A DNA stretch of 40,878 nucleotides from a virus (lineage: Duplodnaviria > Heunggongvirae > Uroviricota > Caudoviricetes). The DNA lies in the IMG/VR virus record IMGVR_UViG_2541047787_000006, positions 1 to 40,878 of that record, one strand, 5' to 3'. The position numbers and the translations under genes are program-made. Shown piece after piece: positions 1 through 8,876 of this stretch. Positions within the stretch are counted from its first letter, which is position 1, and the number at the start of each line of letters is the position of its first letter. A model generated the notes under the pieces. It had not been told where the DNA came from. It did no database searches and saw only the letters and a list, made by a program, of their open reading frames with translations.

Positions 1-516
1 ATGAAATTTAAAAAATGTCTTCTGCCTGTGGCAATGTTAGCGTCATTCACTCTGGCAGGATGCCAGTCAAATGCTGACGATCATGCCGCCGATGTTTATC
101 AAACCGATCAACTGAATACCAAACAAGAAACTAAAACCGTTAATATTATTTCCATTCTTCCCGCAAAAGTTGCCGTAGACAACTCCCAAAATAAACGGAA
201 CGCACAAGCCTTCGGCGCGCTTATTGGCGCAGTCGCTGGCGGTGTTATCGGCCACAACGTCGGTTCTGGCAGCAATTCCGGAACGACGGCAGGGGCAGTT
301 GGCGGCGGAGCTGTAGGCGCGGCAGCGGGTTCTATGGTGAATGATAAAACCTTAGTGGAAGGTGTTTCTTTAACATATAAGGAAGGCACCAAAGTGTATA
401 CCTCTACCCAGGTGGGTAAAGAGTGCCAGTTTACGACAGGTTTAGCCGTTGTTATTACCACAACGTATAACGAAACGCGTATTCAGCCAAATACTAAATG
501 TCCTGAAAAGAGCTAA
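1..516 (+). CDS. Host lipoprotein with glycine-rich (glycine-zipper-like) segment
   Basis: Signal peptide with lipobox LAGC; Gly/Ala-rich stretch GALIGAVAGGVIGHNVG typical of SlyB/Pcp-like outer membrane lipoproteins; lies outside the prophage. Confidence 0.6.
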   Translation: MKFKKCLLPVAMLASFTLAGCQSNADDHAADVYQTDQLNTKQETKTVNIISILPAKVAVDNSQNKRNAQAFGALIGAVAGGVIGHNVGSGSNSGTTAGAVGGGAVGAAAGSMVNDKTLVEGVSLTYKEGTKVYTSTQVGKECQFTTGLAVVITTTYNETRIQPNTKCPEKS

Positions 517-531
517 TAATCAGGAGGAGTC

Positions 532-1071
532 ATGAAGAAAGTTTTTCTTTGCGCCATCTTGGCCTCCTTAAGCTATCCGGCTATCGCCTCATCATTGCAG
601 GATCAACTCTCTGCTGTAGCAGAAGCTGAACAGCAAGGTAAAAATGAAGAGCAAAGGCAGCATGACGAATGGGTCGCGGAGCGCAACAGGGAAATCCAGC
701 AAGAGAAGCAACGTCGCGCAAATGCCCAGGCCGCCGCTAACAAAAGAGCGGCAACGGCAGCAGCAAATAAGAAAGCTCGTCAGGATAAACTGGACGCCGA
801 AGCCTCTGCGGACAAAAAACGCGATCAAAGTTATGAAGATGAGCTACGCAGCTTAGAGATTCAGAAACAAAAACTGGCGCTGGCGAAAGAAGAAGCCCGC
901 GTTAAGCGAGAAAACGAATTTATCGATCAGGAACTGAAGCACAAAGCTGCGCAAACCGATGTGGTGCAATCTGAAGCTGACGCCAACAGAAATATGACTG
1001 AAGGCGGTCGCGATCTGATGAAAAGCGTGGGCAAAGCAGAAGAGAACAAATCGGACAGCTGGTTTAATTAA
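532..1071 (+). CDS. Secreted coiled-coil protein, host, function unknown
   Basis: AGGAGG RBS at 522-527; N-terminal signal peptide; highly charged Q/K/E/A-rich body. Confidence 0.55.
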   Translation: MKKVFLCAILASLSYPAIASSLQDQLSAVAEAEQQGKNEEQRQHDEWVAERNREIQQEKQRRANAQAAANKRAATAAANKKARQDKLDAEASADKKRDQSYEDELRSLEIQKQKLALAKEEARVKRENEFIDQELKHKAAQTDVVQSEADANRNMTEGGRDLMKSVGKAEENKSDSWFN

Positions 1072-1111
1072 TCGATGTTAGTAACTTCAAGCCTATGATT
1101 CTTGAAGATAA

Positions 1112-1142
1112 AAAACCCTCTGTAGTAACAGAGGGTTTTGTT
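1112..1142 (+). terminator. Rho-independent terminator after the host operon
   Basis: Stem CCCTCTGT / ACAGAGGG with loop AGTA followed by TTTTGTT; preceded by an A-run, so possibly bidirectional. Confidence 0.6.
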
Positions 1143-1290
1143 CATTCATAGTGCAGGGATTAAAATCATTCCCACTCAATTATTTACGGCAGCCATAACC
1201 AATTGAGTGATAACATTTTTCCAAAACCTCATTTTTTTAGTACCGTTTTATATACCGTCACCGGAAATCAGTACCATGAAAAATGCCATG

Positions 1291-1773
1291 CTATCTTGTC
1301 AGGGTGTCATACTGTTTTTCGCAGACTCTTCCGGCTTCGGCTGCCCGGTCAGCATACTCTGCCAGTTGTCTGTTTCTCTCGAGAGATTTGCTGAGCACGT
1401 CGGCAAGCAAAACTCCGGTGTCTGCGGCTGACGTCCCAGCGCCGACAATGGCGTTATACTGCCTGAGCTGCTCACGGATGGCAAAGAGCTGTTGCTGCAA
1501 CCGGACAGCGCGAGCGGCAGCATCAAGAGCATCATTGCGCGCCTGGTCGATCCTCTGCTGAGCTTCACGTTCATTGGTCGTTTTCTCCTGTTCGTAGTGC
1601 TGACGAACTCTCTCATCTTCAGCTTTGCGGTCTTCCTTCGCCTGCGCATACCCGGCGTTGTACTGACGACTTCCGTGTACATTCCAGGCTGCAACTCCTG
1701 ATATGACCAGAACAGCAAGCATCACCATGATAACCAACTGTTTCCTGTATGCTTTTGCGAATGCCCAGATCAT
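1291..1773 (-). CDS. Rz-like i-spanin
   Basis: N-terminal transmembrane segment, coiled-coil charged periplasmic domain; directly downstream of and overlapping the endolysin gene. Confidence 0.7.
1299..1535 (-). CDS. Rz1-like o-spanin lipoprotein embedded in Rz in another frame
   Basis: Internal start [13 protein letters not shown] gives a lipobox signal peptide (LSGC) followed by a Pro/Ser-rich body; wholly inside the Rz ORF in the +1 frame. Confidence 0.5.
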   Translation of the reverse strand: MMLLMLPLALSGCSNSSLPSVSSSGSITPLSALGRQPQTPEFCLPTCSANLSRETDNWQSMLTGQPKPEESAKNSMTP

Positions 1774-2399
1774 ACCGCCAGCACCTTACTGGCAGTGATG
1801 TACCGCGCGCGCCGGTCGTCGATGCCGTTCCGGCCACCATTGATAATCAGAGTTACACGTGCAATATCGCCGGTATACTTCATGCAACCTTTGCTGGAGA
1901 AGAACCACGCCGCGCTACGAGCCGCGTATTCGTCCTGCGCCAGCAGTTCAGGATTCTCCAGCAAGTCCACTTTCAAGCCGTTTCCGCAGTCACGATAGTT
2001 ATTCAAACCAGTAATCTGGATAAGTCCGCGACCTCGGTAATTCCAGCCATCGCCGGGGGCATTGTTCCCCATGCGTTTGCTGTATACCAGATTTGCGATC
2101 GCTCGCTGGCGCTCGAGTGGCAATGGTGGCTCACCAGCACGGCGACCCAGTGCATTAGCCTGCCCCTGAGTGAGACGCCCAGCCCGAACGAAGTTATCCA
2201 GTCCGCTGACGCTGTAGTTGAAATTCTCCTGCAACCGGGTGAAGCCCCCAGACTCATGCCCGACTTGAGCAATAAACATTGCCTGATCTTCTGCTTTGCT
2301 GATACCAAACTCTTTCATCGCAGAAGTTATATGCGAGAACCAGCGAGCGGACAGCACCTCGCTAATACCAGCAGCTCGCTGGAATTGCTTAATCTCCAT
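1770..2399 (-). CDS. Endolysin, glycoside hydrolase family 19 (chitinase-like lysozyme)
   Basis: Motifs [24 protein letters not shown] and WFF typical of GH19 phage endolysins; position in lysis cassette. Confidence 0.85.
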
Positions 2400-2697
2400 C
2401 TTTAGACCTCGTTATTTTGAAAATCTGAACGACGTTACCGCGCGTTTTAATAACCGCAGCAAGCATGACAGCATTGATAATGACCTCAGATAAATCCACA
2501 GCCATTGGCGTGCGTAACCAGATTGCATAAACGACACGAACAGGAATACTGGCCGCAGCAACAATCAGGAAATAAGCAAGCCACCCTCCCCATCTTCGGT
2601 GTTGAGAACCGTTGCGCCGGAATGTGACAACGCGAATTGCTATACCAGTACAAATAACTGCATTGGTGATTAGCAAAAAAAGCTCATGAGTTACCAT
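2389..2697 (-). CDS. Small lysis-cassette membrane protein (second holin or antiholin-like)
   Basis: 102 aa with 2-3 predicted transmembrane helices; sits between holin and endolysin, overlapping both. Confidence 0.45.
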
Positions 2698-3100
2698 CGT
2701 CGTTTCTCCCAGGCATTAAGTCGCGTGGATTATCAGAGCGGTGATAGAGCCATATTCCAATACGCACTGCTACAATCGCTGACACAAATGCGCCAGCAGA
2801 GAAGACAACCCCGTTCTCGAAAGAATCCTGCGTAATGGTAGGGATTAGACTGGCTATTCCTATAAGAATTGATGCTGTCGCTTTGTAGAAGAGAAGACCG
2901 CAAAGGAAGCTGAGAATAGCCAAGAATAACCGCCGTTTTATTGGATACTCAACTGCAGAGGTAACAAAAATTACCGCACCAGCAAGAGCACCAAGCGCGA
3001 CTTCTGGAGGAACCCCGGCAACAACAGAAGCCAGCGCACCAAGGCTAATCCCCTGATTAAGTGACTCCGTTGTCAGCGTGGTTGCCATAGTGACCACCAT
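2684..3100 (-). CDS. Holin
   Basis: 138 aa, multiple hydrophobic helices, charged C-terminus; first gene of the lysis cassette. Confidence 0.6.
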   Translation of the reverse strand: MVVTMATTLTTESLNQGISLGALASVVAGVPPEVALGALAGAVIFVTSAVEYPIKRRLFLAILSFLCGLLFYKATASILIGIASLIPTITQDSFENGVVFSAGAFVSAIVAVRIGIWLYHRSDNPRDLMPGRNDDGNS

Positions 3101-3285
3101 TTATTGTGCATAATGAACCTCCCTTAGTTGGTGAGCTTATCATACACAACAAACCATATATGGTTAAAAAATATTAAAGATAATAGTAAAAGATTGCCTT
3201 CATGGACAGATTTAGGGATAGTTGCTATCCCTAAAAAATGTGATTTATGTATTGAAATAATAAGTACGGTTTTGCAGCATTATTG

Positions 3286-5532
3286 TTATGATATTTTCTT
3301 CCATGCAAATGCTGTAGTGCCAGTTGCTTTATACCACTCAAACTGACCAGCAGTTGTGTCAAGATATTCTTCTCCAATATATCTTGGAACTACATTGTTT
3401 ATTGGGTTTTGCGCCTGTTTCCTAACAAAGAAACGATCATCCCAAAGCTTTTGTGTTTCATAGTTTAGAAATGACATTCCAGCGATGGTTAATAATGGTG
3501 ATCCTGATGATTGATTTGAATTAATATACATACTAATCACATGCCATCCTCGTGATGCTATATGTATACGTGCCGATTTTTGAGTATCATACGATGAGTT
3601 TCTATCTATTGAAAGTGTATTATCTTTAACATTTAAGTTTAATGTTGCAGATGGTTTTGATTTAATATCACTATTAATAATTTCAACAACTCTATCATCA
3701 AGAGAATATTGTGATTGAGGAAGTCCAAAATCAAGCTCTATAGATAAAGCTGAATTTGCCACAATAATGCTTGGGGTGAAAATAAGATCATCCTCATCAG
3801 CGTAGAAGCATATAAACACTTTATTCCCATACTGGCTTGTTTCAACAACATAACCACCAGTGTAACTTGCTAACGGCGGGCTAACCATTGATGGTTTATT
3901 TAACTGAGTTCCCCATGCCCCATCCTTTAGCTTCATAGATGTTTCGAAAGTTCTTACATTAATATTTGTTCCTGATTTAACTTTCGTTGGGTTATTAAAT
4001 TTAGAAAGTAGAAAAGCAAAAACTTTTGCCGCAAGGTATTTATAACCTTCCTCACGAAAATGAACATTATCACTAAATCTTGTAGAGTCGATACCGTAAA
4101 AAACCTCTACACCGTCAAGAACTGGTATCCCGTATTGTTCTCCAATATTAAAAACAGCTTCTCTATAAGCATCAAGAAGCCTTACATTTGCACCATATTT
4201 TTTCTGTGGAGGTGGAGTTATCAAAATTACAGCAGCACCCTTTACAAGTTCTCTCGCAATTATTTTCTTATAATAAAAAATATAGTCTGATATTGACTGG
4301 TAAGGGCTGAATCCCTGTGCAGCATCATTTGTTCCGTACATGATAATAGTTAAATCACTATTAACATTTACATCCCAATCACCCCACCCTAATTTAGTAT
4401 TATCACCTGAATAGCCTTGGTTAATAACATTAATGGATGATGAAAATGCTTGCTGAAGATAGCCTTGCAACGCCTGAGGGTAAGTTGTCGCCGCCCTTGT
4501 TTTATTATGAACACGACCTGATGCTGTAGGAGTTGTATCTGGTGGAGTCGGTGCAATTATAGTGTCTTCTCCATATGTCAGGGAATCACCTCGGCAAACG
4601 ATGGTTATCGCGTCTGAATCACGTGCTACCTTTTCTGCATACTTGCTAAGATTTAGTCTCTGAAGCGCATGCAACTGCTTACCTGGAATTTTCTGGGTTC
4701 CGATATCAACTATGTCATTTTGAACAAGTTGAGAAGCGGAAACACCAGCAATACTTACATCACTGTTTACGTCAGAAAGATCACTGCGTAAAGACGCATC
4801 ACCCACACCTCTCCAAGCGCCAGGACCAACACCACCAGTAGTGGTAGGAGTTGATCCTGGAGGAACTACTTTGGGCAGTGGCCCGTCCCATCTGTAGTAT
4901 TCGCCGTTGCTTTCCCAGAGAAGAACATCGTTAAGATAGATGATGGTATTACCCAACTCAAAAGATTTCTTCGTGTTATAGCCATACAATCCATTTTCTA
5001 AGGTTTCAATAATGGTGCTAAGTATGGTACTAAATTTTGCATAAAGATCATCAGTATATTTTTTTGTAGCAGCATCTTGGGGAAGAGATGGATCACGAAG
5101 ATTTCTAATATAATTTGAAAGCGCGTCATAAAAAATTGCTACGTCATTTGGCTTTCTTAAAGCCAACTTATCATTTCTTAATGATTGTTGAATGAGCATA
5201 GTAAGTTTATCAAACGCATCCTCATGTACCTCAGCGAAGAACTTACCCTGATTACGTAAATCCGTTTCCTGAGTAGCTGGTAGTTCTCGTGATATAGATA
5301 TCTGATGACCGTTAGCCAACGCCTTCGAGAGAATTACATTACCGCCGTTGTACCCTCCTGCTCCGGTGACGATGTAATCTGTATCAAGAACCAGTACGTT
5401 TATATTCTCGTTAATGTCAACAACCTGTACTACCAGATCTGATTTTTTGAAGATCCTAAATTTGTAAGGGAATGTCGTCGTAACACCATTACCAGTGTAT
5501 TCGTTGTGGTTAACTTCGGTTGAGACCGTCAT
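3286..5532 (-). CDS. Tailspike / tail fibre with conserved podovirus N-terminal anchor and C-terminal SGNH (GDSL) hydrolase domain
   Basis: N-terminus EYTGNGVTTTFPYKF resembles the T7 gp17-type anchor; GDSLTYG, GTNDA and DNVHF motifs of SGNH esterases in the middle; AT-rich receptor-binding portion. Confidence 0.85.
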   Translation of the reverse strand: MTVSTEVNHNEYTGNGVTTTFPYKFRIFKKSDLVVQVVDINENINVLVLDTDYIVTGAGGYNGGNVILSKALANGHQISISRELPATQETDLRNQGKFFAEVHEDAFDKLTMLIQQSLRNDKLALRKPNDVAIFYDALSNYIRNLRDPSLPQDAATKKYTDDLYAKFSTILSTIIETLENGLYGYNTKKSFELGNTIIYLNDVLLWESNGEYYRWDGPLPKVVPPGSTPTTTGGVGPGAWRGVGDASLRSDLSDVNSDVSIAGVSASQLVQNDIVDIGTQKIPGKQLHALQRLNLSKYAEKVARDSDAITIVCRGDSLTYGEDTIIAPTPPDTTPTASGRVHNKTRAATTYPQALQGYLQQAFSSSINVINQGYSGDNTKLGWGDWDVNVNSDLTIIMYGTNDAAQGFSPYQSISDYIFYYKKIIARELVKGAAVILITPPPQKKYGANVRLLDAYREAVFNIGEQYGIPVLDGVEVFYGIDSTRFSDNVHFREEGYKYLAAKVFAFLLSKFNNPTKVKSGTNINVRTFETSMKLKDGAWGTQLNKPSMVSPPLASYTGGYVVETSQYGNKVFICFYADEDDLIFTPSIIVANSALSIELDFGLPQSQYSLDDRVVEIINSDIKSKPSATLNLNVKDNTLSIDRNSSYDTQKSARIHIASRGWHVISMYINSNQSSGSPLLTIAGMSFLNYETQKLWDDRFFVRKQAQNPINNVVPRYIGEEYLDTTAGQFEWYKATGTTAFAWKKIS

Positions 5533-5636
5533 GTTAAATCTCCAGATAGTCGCAGCACCCGTTGCGCCGCATATCTGGTTATTCTATTACCTGAAAAACC
5601 ACATATGGATAGAAAGACTGTAAATACGAATAGATA

Positions 5637-5651: not shown

Positions 5652-5690
5652 TTTGCAAAACGTGCTGGATAGCAAACAAATTATTTGATA

Positions 5691-5706
5691 CTGTATAAAT
5701 ATACAG
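5691..5706. promoter_or_regulatory. LexA (SOS) box CTGTATAAATATACAG
   Basis: Perfect CTGT-N8-ACAG dyad with AT-rich spacer, flanked as TACTGTATAAATATACAGTT, about 20 bp upstream of the 5728 start codon and next to a TTGATA hexamer. Confidence 0.6.
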
Positions 5707-5727
5707 TTATTGCATGGAGAAGATAAG

Positions 5728-5985
5728 ATGCAGCAGTATCACTATCCACTGGAAGACGGATTTACCGAAAGGATTCACACGCCGGGAGGCGTCAGGTCAC
5801 TGGTGGAGGGATCGCACTTGATGAAATTACTCCGGGATCTCGATAAGGATGGATTTAATGTCGATGGCCCACTTGCCGAACTGACTGCACTGATTAACTA
5901 CGTCACCAGCTCACAGATGTCTATGCAGGATCTGCAAACACATCTCGACTATTGTGCCGAACAATTACGAAAACAAACCCGGTAA
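5728..5985 (+). CDS. Small protein homologous to the C-terminal domain of the antirepressor at 7373-8029; candidate SOS-induced antirepressor
   Basis: GGAGA RBS 7 nt upstream; product IHTPGGVRSLVEGSHLMKLL..DLQTH aligns with [25 protein letters not shown] of the 7373 protein; the ORF track start at 5710 is TTG without an RBS. Confidence 0.5.
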   Translation: MQQYHYPLEDGFTERIHTPGGVRSLVEGSHLMKLLRDLDKDGFNVDGPLAELTALINYVTSSQMSMQDLQTHLDYCAEQLRKQTR

Positions 5986-6009: not shown

Positions 6010-6516
6010 TTAACAGTCGTAAAATTCCGGGTCCCACAAACTTGCATCGCGCGGCATGGATTCTAAATTTTTCAGCCGCAAAATTCTGTCACACTCGACA
6101 AGAAGTTTTTGTTTTTGTTCGTCAATTTCTACTTTTTTGTGTGCTGGCTCATCCCAGTAATCCAGAAGAAACGCATGTCGCTCAGACGTTACAAGATAAA
6201 TCACATACACATCACTGGTTGGTATTTTTTTATGCTTGTTGGTGGCCTTGTCTTTCTTCCCGGATGCCCAGTTTTTCCAGCATTGTTCCGTACCGCTCTC
6301 ACCAAACTTGTCAGTATAGTTTCCGATGTTTACGTGAACGTGGCGTATGTGATATTCCAGCATCTCTTTCGGTGGATCCCGAAACAGAGTGTCCTTTCCG
6401 AAATCCTTATGATGACCGTAGCGCCAGTGATCTATGAACGCGTTTTTGATAGGTATTAGCTCAGGGTCCTTCCCAAAAATTCCAGGGTGAACCAACCCCT
6501 GGAATTTATTCAGCAT
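6010..6516 (-). CDS. YafO-like toxin-domain protein (putative mRNA interferase-type toxin), module 1
   Basis: Motifs FGKD..F.DP, RHVHVN, IPTSD, VIYLVT and EPAHK resemble the YafO family as recalled from memory; paralogous to 8331-8876; start ATG at 6516 overlaps the upstream stop (ATGCTGAATAA). Confidence 0.45.
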   Translation of the reverse strand: MLNKFQGLVHPGIFGKDPELIPIKNAFIDHWRYGHHKDFGKDTLFRDPPKEMLEYHIRHVHVNIGNYTDKFGESGTEQCWKNWASGKKDKATNKHKKIPTSDVYVIYLVTSERHAFLLDYWDEPAHKKVEIDEQKQKLLVECDRILRLKNLESMPRDASLWDPEFYDC

Positions 6517-6925
6517 CGTCGTAGAGCTCCTGAGCCATATCTTCGGCAGTGCGTGCAAACATCCTGCGCGAGATTGCATGAGATTTCTCGACGGACATCT
6601 TTGGGACCTCATGCATAACATTTTTGGGAGTTGTGTAATAGCCTATTACAATTTTCACACCTGACTTATGATTAATATCAGCATAATATACTTCTTGTTC
6701 AGACGTTTCACGACGAACATAATCTGCCAGTTTTCCACATTTAAATTCCCCTCCCTGATGTTTTAAAATCTCCTCAACTGCACTATTTTCAGTGAAATAC
6801 CGAATAAGAAATTTCTGTCCAGTCTCTTCAGCATGAGGTATAACAGTATTATTGGAAGCCCGAACAATGGCCTTACTCAATATTTCATGGTCTTTATTTT
6901 TTTCTGATTTCCTCAAATGCTGCAT
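6506..6925 (-). CDS. Upstream partner of toxin-like gene (candidate antitoxin or immunity protein), no recognisable family
   Basis: 139 aa from the ATG at 6925; overlaps the downstream start by 11 nt; C-terminal tail KMSVEKSHAISRRMFARTAEDMAQELYDDAE resembles the tail of the 8177 small ORF. Confidence 0.4.
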   Translation of the reverse strand: MQHLRKSEKNKDHEILSKAIVRASNNTVIPHAEETGQKFLIRYFTENSAVEEILKHQGGEFKCGKLADYVRRETSEQEVYYADINHKSGVKIVIGYYTTPKNVMHEVPKMSVEKSHAISRRMFARTAEDMAQELYDDAE

Positions 6926-7372: not shown

Positions 7373-8029
7373 ATGAACGCTCAACTCATCCCCGTATTCA
7401 ACGGCACTATATCTAACGAAACAGCCCTACTTTGTAATGCCCGCGATCTGCACGCTTTTTTAGGTGTTAAAAAGGTGTTTGCAGCATGGATTACAAATCG
7501 CATATCAGAATACGAATTCATTGAAAATCAAGACTATATTTTGCTTTCCAATTTGGGAAAGCAAACATCTGGTAGAGGCGGCCACAACCGCAAAGAGTAC
7601 CACCTTACCCTTGATACAGCCAAAGAGCTGGCGATGGTCGAGCGTAACGAAAAAGGTCGCCAGGTGCGACGCTACTTCATTGAATGCGAGAAACGTTTAA
7701 GACAACAAGAAACAAAAGTGGAGAAGGTCTTGTCAGGCTTCATGCCCGCCATTATGGAGGCGATCAAGCTGGAAGACAAAAAAGAATACAGTGCCCCGCT
7801 GAAGCCCGGCTACCGCAGCCTGATTCATTCTCCGTCTGGTGTTCTCGGCCTGACGGAAAACTCACTGCTGATGAATCTGCTGAACCAGTTACAGGAAGAC
7901 GGGCACGACGTATCGGGCGCGGCGGCGGAGCTGACCACCATGTTCTGCTACATCGTCGGTGTGAGCAAATGCCTGCGTGATATCCAGACCCACGCGGAGT
8001 ACATCAACGACAAGGCTGGGTTCTTCTGA
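7373..8029 (+). CDS. Antirepressor, AntA/AntB-type N-terminal domain plus C-terminal domain shared with the 5728 protein
   Basis: N-terminal [34 protein letters not shown] matches the AntA antirepressor pattern; GGAG RBS at 7361. Confidence 0.7.
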
Positions 8030-8176: not shown

Positions 8177-8356
8177 ATGCGAAACGAAAAATTGCAGATG
8201 CGTAGAGCGCAAGCTGCCGCAAGACGTTCTTTCAATGGAAGCGTAGAGTACGTAAAAGTTACTATGACAAAAGATCACGCAAGTCGCGTATCCAGCGCTT
8301 TCTTTGATTCTCGTAACAATAAGGAAAATTATGAGTTCGTCTGCGTCGCAGAATGA
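8177..8356 (+). CDS. Small 59-aa protein overlapping the start of toxin-like gene (candidate antitoxin), module 2
   Basis: Not in the ORF track (under 60 aa); GAGG RBS at 8166-8169, ATG at 8177; overlaps the 8331 gene by 26 nt; tail KVTMTKDHASRVSSAFF...VAE resembles the C-terminus of the 6506-6925 product. Confidence 0.35.
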   Translation: MRNEKLQMRRAQAAARRSFNGSVEYVKVTMTKDHASRVSSAFFDSRNNKENYEFVCVAE

Positions 8357-8876
8357 TAAAAATCAAATTGTCAGATATAAGGGTCGAGTATTGCATACGC
8401 AAAATTTCTCGGCCCTTTGTGCATCTGATCTTGAGCTGAAGAAAGTATCTGATGCCTTTGCCCAGTATTGGAAAACGGGATACCATCCATCTCTTGGTAA
8501 AGATGCTGCATTTGCTCGTCCGACAGAAATGCTTAAACTAAATGTCAGGCATACTCATGTCGATAACCAAGACTATATTCCAGAAGATAGTGATAAAAAA
8601 CACACTGGTAAAAAATCATCTTGGGATGCATGGAAAAATATAGCGTCTGTACAAGTAAAATGCATACCAACAAGTGATTGCTTTTTAGTTTATTCGGTAA
8701 ATCACAATCGTGATGCGCTGGTTATGTTTTTTGTTGACGCAGATGCTCACAACATAACTGAGCAAGAAGAGTTTAAAGAGGCAGCAATCACTATCAGTTA
8801 TCAATTCTTTGAGAAAACAAAAACAGAACCAATGCCTTTAGAAGAAGATCTTTTTTCTGATAAATGGAAGGAATAG
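8331..8876 (+). CDS. YafO-like toxin-domain protein, module 2 (paralog of 6010-6516)
   Basis: AAGGA RBS 5 nt upstream of the ATG at 8331; shares W.TGYH, LGKD..F.RP.EML, RHTHVD, IPTSD, LVYSV and DAHN motifs with the 6010 product. Confidence 0.45.
   Translation: MSSSASQNDKNQIVRYKGRVLHTQNFSALCASDLELKKVSDAFAQYWKTGYHPSLGKDAAFARPTEMLKLNVRHTHVDNQDYIPEDSDKKHTGKKSSWDAWKNIASVQVKCIPTSDCFLVYSVNHNRDALVMFFVDADAHNITEQEEFKEAAITISYQFFEKTKTEPMPLEEDLFSDKWKE

Follow-up and report, generated by a model that had tools for sequence, protein, structure and literature searches.

An SGNH esterase tailspike on an epsilon15-type anchor in an Escherichia coli prophage, a probable deacetylase of host surface polysaccharide

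What does the receptor-binding protein of this prophage do to the surface of its host, and on which glycan would it act? The stretch of DNA analysed here (40,878 nucleotides, record IMGVR_UViG_2541047787_000006 of IMG/VR; hereafter the window) carries, at positions 3286..5532 of the minus strand, a single intact open reading frame of 748 amino acids plus stop codon, beginning with ATG. An initial annotation, made from the sequence, had read it as a tailspike that modifies rather than cleaves a surface polysaccharide. The explanation that accounts best for our results, and that we consider quite probable as a whole, is that the gene encodes the sole tailspike of a temperate Uetakevirus (epsilon15/phiV10-type) podovirus residing as a prophage in E. 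coli, and that the protein is a deacetylating spike of the G7C gp63.1 type, docked on an epsilon15-type anchor, with O-antigen as its most likely substrate.

Deacetylation is a known, less common way for phages to recognise their hosts, and the mechanism is already established in relatives of this spike; deacetylating tailspikes are on record for G7C, Moo19 and B2, epsilon15, Pectobacterium and Acinetobacter phages, and Klebsiella prophages. As related in PMC10743462, G7C gp63.1 removes acetyl groups from the E. coli 4s O-antigen without cutting the chain and is essential for infection, and mutants deficient in O-acetylation resist the phage; the description of gp63.1 as an O-acetyl esterase is credited there, and in PMC13123978, to Prokhorov et al. 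2017. The spikes of the Shigella phages Moo19 and B2 hydrolyse p-nitrophenyl acetate, and both phages need O-antigen modification (PMC11654681). In Klebsiella prophages, few enzymatic receptor-binding proteins are commoner than those with an SGNH domain, and two of the latter are active on p-nitrophenyl acetate (PMC13123978). Recently, epsilon15 gp20 was described as carrying an SGNH "petal" esterase besides its endorhamnosidase (bioRxiv 10.64898/2026.07.31.742079).

The setting of the gene is that of an integrated podovirus. The first 1.07 kb of the window consists of the E. coli chromosomal genes yfgH and yfgI, which form the only chromosomal flank inside the window, and the prophage integration site adjoins these two genes. 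Next, on the minus strand, comes a lysis cassette with genes for an Rz-like protein, a GH19 endolysin, a holin, and a membrane protein, and positions 1-3170 share approximately 94% identity with hundreds of E. coli genomes. An antirepressor region lies on the other side of the spike gene. After it come the structural genes of the podovirus, which encode internal virion proteins, both tail tubular proteins (A and B), the major capsid and portal proteins, and terminase; the far end of the window carries genes for recombination together with those of an MT-A70 methylase and an integrase. Over the 58-59% of the structural region (5533-28460) that aligns, DNA identity to phages phiv142-3, TL-2011b, and phiV10, all members of the genus Uetakevirus (epsilon15 group), reaches 96-97%. 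As in these Uetakevirus relatives, the spike gene has the structural genes on one side and the lysis cassette on the other, and its counterparts by synteny are the tail fibre gene Orf6 in phiv142-3, gp20 in epsilon15, and p25 in phiV10. A Shine-Dalgarno sequence (GGAG, 5540..5543, minus strand) is visible 7 nt 5' of the ATG; a promoter scan around the spike gene gave no signal beyond shuffled expectation, and a terminator scan 3' of its stop codon gave no convincing candidate.

Tail fibre PHROG families match the open reading frame with an E value of 5e-186, and its N-terminus is a virion anchor of the epsilon15/phiV10 (Uetakevirus) type (amino acids 1-165; 5038..5532, minus strand), as indicated by its identity to gp20 and by PHROG and PDB matches. 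Over residues 1-163, the protein is 80% identical to gp20, the tailspike of epsilon15, and 83-84% identical to those of TL-2011b and PAS61. Uetakevirus tailspikes are marked by a conserved anchor of approximately 165-205 amino acids; anchor identity to relatives is 63-84%, and this, together with the location in a Uetakevirus genome, places the present protein among them. PHROGs 1640, 32960, and others cover residues 1-164, PDB entry 28lx matches the N-terminus in a sequence search, and Foldseek pairs the N-terminus with 8ck1_B (phage tail-fibre assembly) at 44% identity. Given this anchor identity and the position of the gene in the tailspike slot, the conserved podovirus anchor proposed in the initial annotation is correct, and anchor, slot, and PHROG tail families together mark the product as a receptor-binding protein. 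A helix predicted at residues 154-179 could form a coiled coil. It is followed by Tail_spike_N (PF18668; amino acids 185-245; 4798..4980, minus strand; Pfam E 3.5e-18), an interdomain module common to the CBA120 tailspikes and G7C gp63.1, and sequence matches to 4oj5, 5w6h, 6nw9, and 4qnl are confined to this stretch.

The distal part of the spike contains an SGNH/GDSL esterase domain (amino acids 306-510; 4003..4617, minus strand), delimited by fold and by Pfam. Two profiles exceed their gathering cut-offs, namely Lipase_GDSL_2 (PF13472; amino acids 315-498, 67.3 bits versus 32.9, E 3.2e-18, profile positions 3-177 of 178) and Lipase_GDSL (PF00657; amino acids 311-503, 38.8 bits versus 23.6, E 1.5e-9). 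The GDSL-type signature quoted in the initial annotation is present in full (GDSLTYG at residues 315-321, GTNDA at 400-404, and DNVHF at 488-492), and a block II motif that had not been listed, GYSGD, lies at residues 373-377. The Pfam scores put this match far beyond chance.

Whether the catalytic residues align with those of SGNH enzymes was the point on which the initial annotation had staked its claim. A profile of 36 SGNH segments from family members was compared by hhalign with mature E. coli TesA, using a reference sequence that we take to be correct and whose numbering matches the published S10, G44, and N73. The alignment (probability 95.7%) pairs all five residues, and the claim stands: Ser317, the block I nucleophile of the GDS motif (codon 4582..4584), with Ser10; Gly376, the block II oxyanion-hole glycine (4405..4407), with Gly44; Asn402, the block III oxyanion-hole asparagine of the GTND motif (4327..4329), with Asn73; and Asp488 and His491, the acid and base of the triad in the block V DxxH motif Asp-Asn-Val-His (4060..4071), with Asp154 and His157, all codons being on the minus strand. 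Ser317 likewise falls on the GDS motif in alignments to 9lna, 9d84, and 9d80, and in 9lna and 9d80 the block V DxxH is matched by SDGTH. Relative to TesA, a 21-residue insertion follows block I, at the same site where solved phage tail-fibre esterases have an insertion. The D, S, and L of block I occupy columns conserved in at least 90% of close-family sequences, and in a mixed alignment of 66 sequences, 64 rows are occupied at both of the SGNH positions that were checked, 62 of them with glycine at the position of Gly376. The likely active-site geometry is that suggested by this alignment.

Structure prediction agrees with the profile searches. The full-length AlphaFold monomer model has a mean pLDDT of 75.8; it is confident over the anchor strands, Tail_spike_N, the SGNH domain, and the beta-sandwich that follows (pLDDT 80-95), with the SGNH domain at approximately 90, and poor over residues 86-156 and 703-719. 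The model is predicted to adopt the alpha/beta/alpha flavodoxin-like SGNH fold, and Foldseek returned target TM-scores of 0.76-0.78 for 1yzf, 6lfb, and 1ivn (0.77 for the last, TesA) and 0.59-0.75 for the other listed matches. The best PDB matches are esterase tailspikes: B2 Gp48 (E 4e-29), SFP21A Gp09, and Moo19 Gp82, then G7C gp63.1 (4QNL, E 1.4e-17), followed by the two-domain acetyl-mannan esterase 6hfz. By sequence, the closest solved structures are likewise SFP21A Gp09 (9LNA, E 5e-34), B2 Gp48 (9D84), and Moo19 Gp82 (9D80/9D81), with matches of E 5e-34 to 6e-26 over residues 156-509.

It is important to note how far these likenesses extend, given that the catalytic domain is no closer than approximately 25% identity to any characterised esterase relative. 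With the spikes of Moo19, B2, and SFP21A it shares the GDS, GxND, and DxxH blocks and a family-specific insertion after block I, but their C-terminal domains and anchors are different and the Foldseek alignments show 17-22% identity; Moo19 and B2 are, moreover, lytic N4-like phages whose spike biochemistry used a generic substrate only. Identity to G7C gp63.1 is 16% overall, with sequence similarity detectable only in Tail_spike_N, so that kinship of the SGNH domains rests on fold, and G7C is a lytic, N4-like member of the Schitoviridae with a branched two-spike system and an anchor different from the present one. The Klebsiella prophage proteins of PMC13123978 resemble the present spike by description, in being temperate, in having SGNH as the sole enzymatic domain, and in their proposed deacetylation without depolymerisation, but they are linked to capsule types, not to O-antigen.

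The initial annotation had also pointed to an AT-rich C-terminal region. The GC content of residues 511-748 is indeed 34.5%, against 38.5% for the SGNH part (residues 306-510) and 49.4% for the whole window. Fold matching assigns residues 511-700 (3433..4002, minus strand) to a beta-sandwich resembling CBM6 and CBM35, the matches including CBM6, CBM35, CBM61, and CBM86 modules and domain III of Cry toxins. Because of these matches to carbohydrate-binding modules, we read the AT-rich C-terminal part as a CBM-like jelly roll, as in G7C gp63.1; the annotation had missed this character of the region. The spike thus has the layout of G7C gp63.1, in which Tail_spike_N, SGNH, and a C-terminal beta-sandwich succeed one another without a beta-helix. 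At the very end, a motif, NPxxNVxPRYxGEEYLDTxxGxFxWYKxTGxxxxxWKxI (residues 706-748; 3289..3417, minus strand), is kept in homologues from E. coli through to Vibrio and Aeromonas, those of the last two having it in two tandem copies. It is predicted to form three short strands (pLDDT 87-93 in a domain model) and has a putative trimerisation or capping role.

Pfam, the AlphaFold model, and fold matching revealed no beta-helix and no other glycosidase or lyase domain in the 748 residues, and the SGNH esterase, which is intact, is the only enzyme domain detected in the spike. The absence of a glycosidase or lyase domain makes modification rather than cleavage of a polysaccharide the best reading, and the fold matches to esterase spikes lend the same proposal support. 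Could the enzyme instead be a lipase or lysophospholipase that breaches the membrane by attacking lipid A acyl chains or outer-membrane phospholipid, and no carbohydrate esterase at all? The Pfam family name ("lipase/acylhydrolase") and the presence of TesA and lysophospholipase L1-like proteins among the matches would suit such an activity. We nevertheless consider it very improbable, given that the structures closest to the domain are those of tailspikes and of esterases acting on polysaccharides, not of lipases, that a CBM-like beta-sandwich is joined to it, as happens in carbohydrate esterases such as 6hfz and 2waa, and that its distal place on the spike, where the receptor is bound, is the first to encounter O-antigen.

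A comparison with the Salmonella phage epsilon15, whose gp20 is the type spike of the genus, bears on whether the domain works as an enzyme. Both spikes belong to the same genus and share the anchor and the position before the lysis cassette, and the gp20 SGNH deacetylates O-antigen galactose. The gp20 protein, however, is 1070 amino acids long; its main activity is that of a beta-helix endorhamnosidase and its SGNH petal is C-terminal, whereas the present spike is without a beta-helix. BLASTP against gp20 returned no match outside the anchor, and a direct relationship of the two SGNH domains was considered and rejected (hhalign probability 0.3% against petal residues 734-1070, with a weak overlap at block V only). 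By analogy with gp20, which pairs a glycosidase with a petal whose esterase activity seems dispensable, the SGNH domain might be a catalytically silent binding module, or the C-terminal part, whose last 40 residues have no assigned function, might hide a second depolymerase activity. This is the least credible of the readings that we weighed: hhalign shows no kinship with the petal domain, the beta-helix is missing, and the C-terminal fold matches non-catalytic CBMs. Furthermore, the SGNH catalytic residues are all intact and are kept in homologues from E. coli down to those of Vibrio at 45-54% identity, which argues for selection on catalysis.

For an active polysaccharide esterase, there remains the question of its substrate. 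The same enzyme and mechanism could be directed at an acetylated capsule (K antigen), colanic acid, ECA, or another exopolysaccharide, and several observations lean that way: in Klebsiella prophages, receptor-binding proteins of the SGNH kind show an association with capsule types (PMC13123978), Vi-capsule phages of Salmonella Typhi are among the tblastn matches, a near-identical protein (P0005) is named "endo-alpha-sialidase" by one source, and a sister protein with the same anchor (P0039) carries a sialate O-acetylesterase domain. The sialidase name is without Pfam domain support, however, and the closest structural relatives, the spikes of G7C, Moo19, and B2, act on O-antigen. The receptor-binding proteins of Uetakevirus, among them that of epsilon15, and of Lederbergvirus that have been characterised in E. 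coli and Salmonella are specific for O-antigen (PMC10408124), and a P22-like prophage that carries the same module (locus L003) has an oac-type AT3 acyltransferase gene immediately downstream of its spike, the classical position for O-antigen conversion. It is the specificity of these proteins together with the AT3 gene that makes O-antigen the likelier substrate; a capsular or other exopolysaccharide target is unlikely, although it is the alternative that we take most seriously. In the prophage of the window, a Pfam search of ten accessory open reading frames found no O-antigen conversion gene, and tblastn with the AT3 protein of L003 found no counterpart.

The P22-like prophage is one of several carriers, and their comparison brings out the modularity of the spike. 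In a large protein database, full-length E. coli proteins (P0001-P0008) are 97-99% identical to the spike and mostly named "GDSL-type esterase/lipase family protein". BLASTP revealed three exchange points within the family: (i) residues 1-254 are 92-98% identical at the amino acid level in proteins with entirely different C-termini (P0023, P0031), (ii) residues 180-748 are 91-93% identical in proteins with a T7 tail-fibre N-terminus (P0011, P0012, P0014), and (iii) residues 254-748 are 94% identical in proteins with a P22 head-binding N-terminus (P0016, P0018). P0012 is carried by a T7-like contig of 39.8 kb and P0016 by the P22-like prophage, so that the same module serves a T7-like lytic phage as tail fibre and a P22-like prophage as tailspike. 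The parts shared with the T7-like and P22-like carriers are 94.7% and 97.1% identical to the present gene at the DNA level, respectively, which indicates recent transfer. More distant versions of the module occur in Enterobacter (70-73% amino acid identity) and in Aeromonas, Vibrio, and their phages (45-54%). In 5,426 complete E. coli genomes, whole-gene megablast and sensitive blastn with the module found the esterase module to be absent, the megablast matching just the first 345 nt of the gene (the anchor), and among 50,697 phage records the module was matched by Vibrio phages only.

The AT3 gene beside the module in the P22-like prophage suggests that what is being contested is the acetylation of O-antigen. 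A bolder reading, which we regard as distinctly doubtful, would make the module a recent import, with its nearest kin among isolated phages in those of Vibrio, that swept three unrelated podovirus lineages of E. coli (Uetakevirus, P22-like, and T7-like; 94-97% DNA identity) and would join AT3 and spike in a writer/eraser circuit for superinfection exclusion, undescribed for esterase spikes; if this were true, the P22-like carrier would encode both the writer of the O-acetyl group (AT3) and its eraser (the spike).

Returning to the deacetylating spike that we favour, the sequence of events at the cell surface may be envisaged as follows. The N-terminal 165 residues would dock a presumably trimeric spike onto the tail, with the G7C gp63.1-like module, comprising the SGNH esterase and the CBM-like beta-sandwich, forming its distal part. 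On the host surface, the spike would bind a polysaccharide that bears O-acetyl groups, most likely O-antigen, and hydrolyse the O-acetyl ester with Ser317 as nucleophile, His491 as base, and Asp488 as acid, the oxyanion hole being contributed by the backbone NH groups of Ser317 and Gly376 and by Asn402. The glycan backbone would be left uncut, and repeated cycles of binding, deacetylation, and release would bring the virion down to the outer membrane. We infer trimer formation, esterase activity, the identity of the substrate, and processivity for this spike. Host range would therefore depend both on the glycan and on its acetylation.

Conceptually, nothing in this scheme is new, deacetylating tailspikes being already established. 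What is new is the placement of the fold beside those of G7C, Moo19, and B2, the recognition of the AT-rich tail as CBM-like, the spread of the module over three lineages, and its rarity in E. coli. The host range of an esterase spike hinges on acetyl decoration, not on the sugar backbone alone, and consequently serotype-based host prediction, phage typing, and the engineering of phage-tail bacteriocins with this module would have to take into account whether the target is acetylated. The module is portable, being found already on three different anchors, and could be used as a probe or deacetylase for one acetylated E. coli glycan.

A search of 5,426 complete RefSeq E. coli genomes, sensitive blastn included, did not match the part of the tailspike that comprises the esterase and the carbohydrate-binding-module (CBM)-like domain (window 3286-4720); near-identical copies were present in draft E. 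coli assemblies. In the phage collection, matches to this part came from Vibrio phages only, with 68-69% DNA identity over 340 nt. The spike ends in a 40-aa motif (…PRYIGEEYLDTTAGQFEWYKATG…WKKI; window 3289-3417, aa 706-748) that is without a Pfam family. Its conservation extends from E. coli to Vibrio, and the homologues of Vibrio and Aeromonas (P0022, P0024, P0025, P0029, and P0032) have it twice in tandem.

The Uetakevirus anchor plus Tail_spike_N, equivalent to window 4771-5532, also occurs in proteins of other enterobacterial prophages, where the usual fusion partners are beta-helix domains. In P0039/P0041, P0073, and P0082 from such prophages, the partners are enzymes other than glycosidases: a sialate O-acetylesterase of the SASA family (PF03629), a glycerophosphodiester phosphodiesterase (PF03009), and a domain of the endonuclease/exonuclease/phosphatase type (PF03372).

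The divergent intergenic region that separates the start of the tailspike gene from the plus-strand ORFs leading to the AntA antirepressor ORF (window 7373-8029) contains a near-consensus LexA (SOS) box, TACTGTATAAATATACAGTT (window 5689-5708; 2 mismatches relative to the 20-nt consensus). The window has no second site of this kind, and 100 shuffles produced none. This suggests that antirepressor induction is under LexA control, for which Gifsy phages and tum of coliphage 186 provide precedents. The 91-aa ORF at window 5710-5985 resembles the C-terminal half of the AntA ORF, a likeness visible in the stretch SLVEGSHLMKLLRDLDKDGFNVDGPLAELTALINY, and could represent an antirepressor module that was duplicated or truncated. 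Two further ORFs, in opposite orientation and paralogous-looking by eye, flank the antirepressor on either side (window 6010-6621, minus strand; window 8304-8876, plus strand). While the former had no match in a Pfam search, the latter matched YafO_toxin (E = 1.2e-5); the pair looks like moron cargo.

The 185 bp separating the tailspike from the membrane-protein/holin genes (window 3101-3285) contain no ORF. The corresponding slot, empty here, is occupied in epsilon15 by the O-antigen polymerase together with its inhibitor and in phiV10 by the O-acetyltransferase gene oac. No acyltransferase or Gtr gene was detected elsewhere in the prophage, either by Pfam analysis of ten accessory ORFs or by tblastn with the Acyl_transf_3 (AT3) protein of L003, the locus of a P22-like prophage that carries the same esterase module at 97% DNA identity. 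In L003, the esterase spike (L003 6001-7893) is adjoined directly downstream by the AT3 gene (L003 8018-9007, minus strand), followed by the integrase. A single phage would then carry genes for a deacetylating spike as well as for a probable acetyltransferase of the O-antigen.
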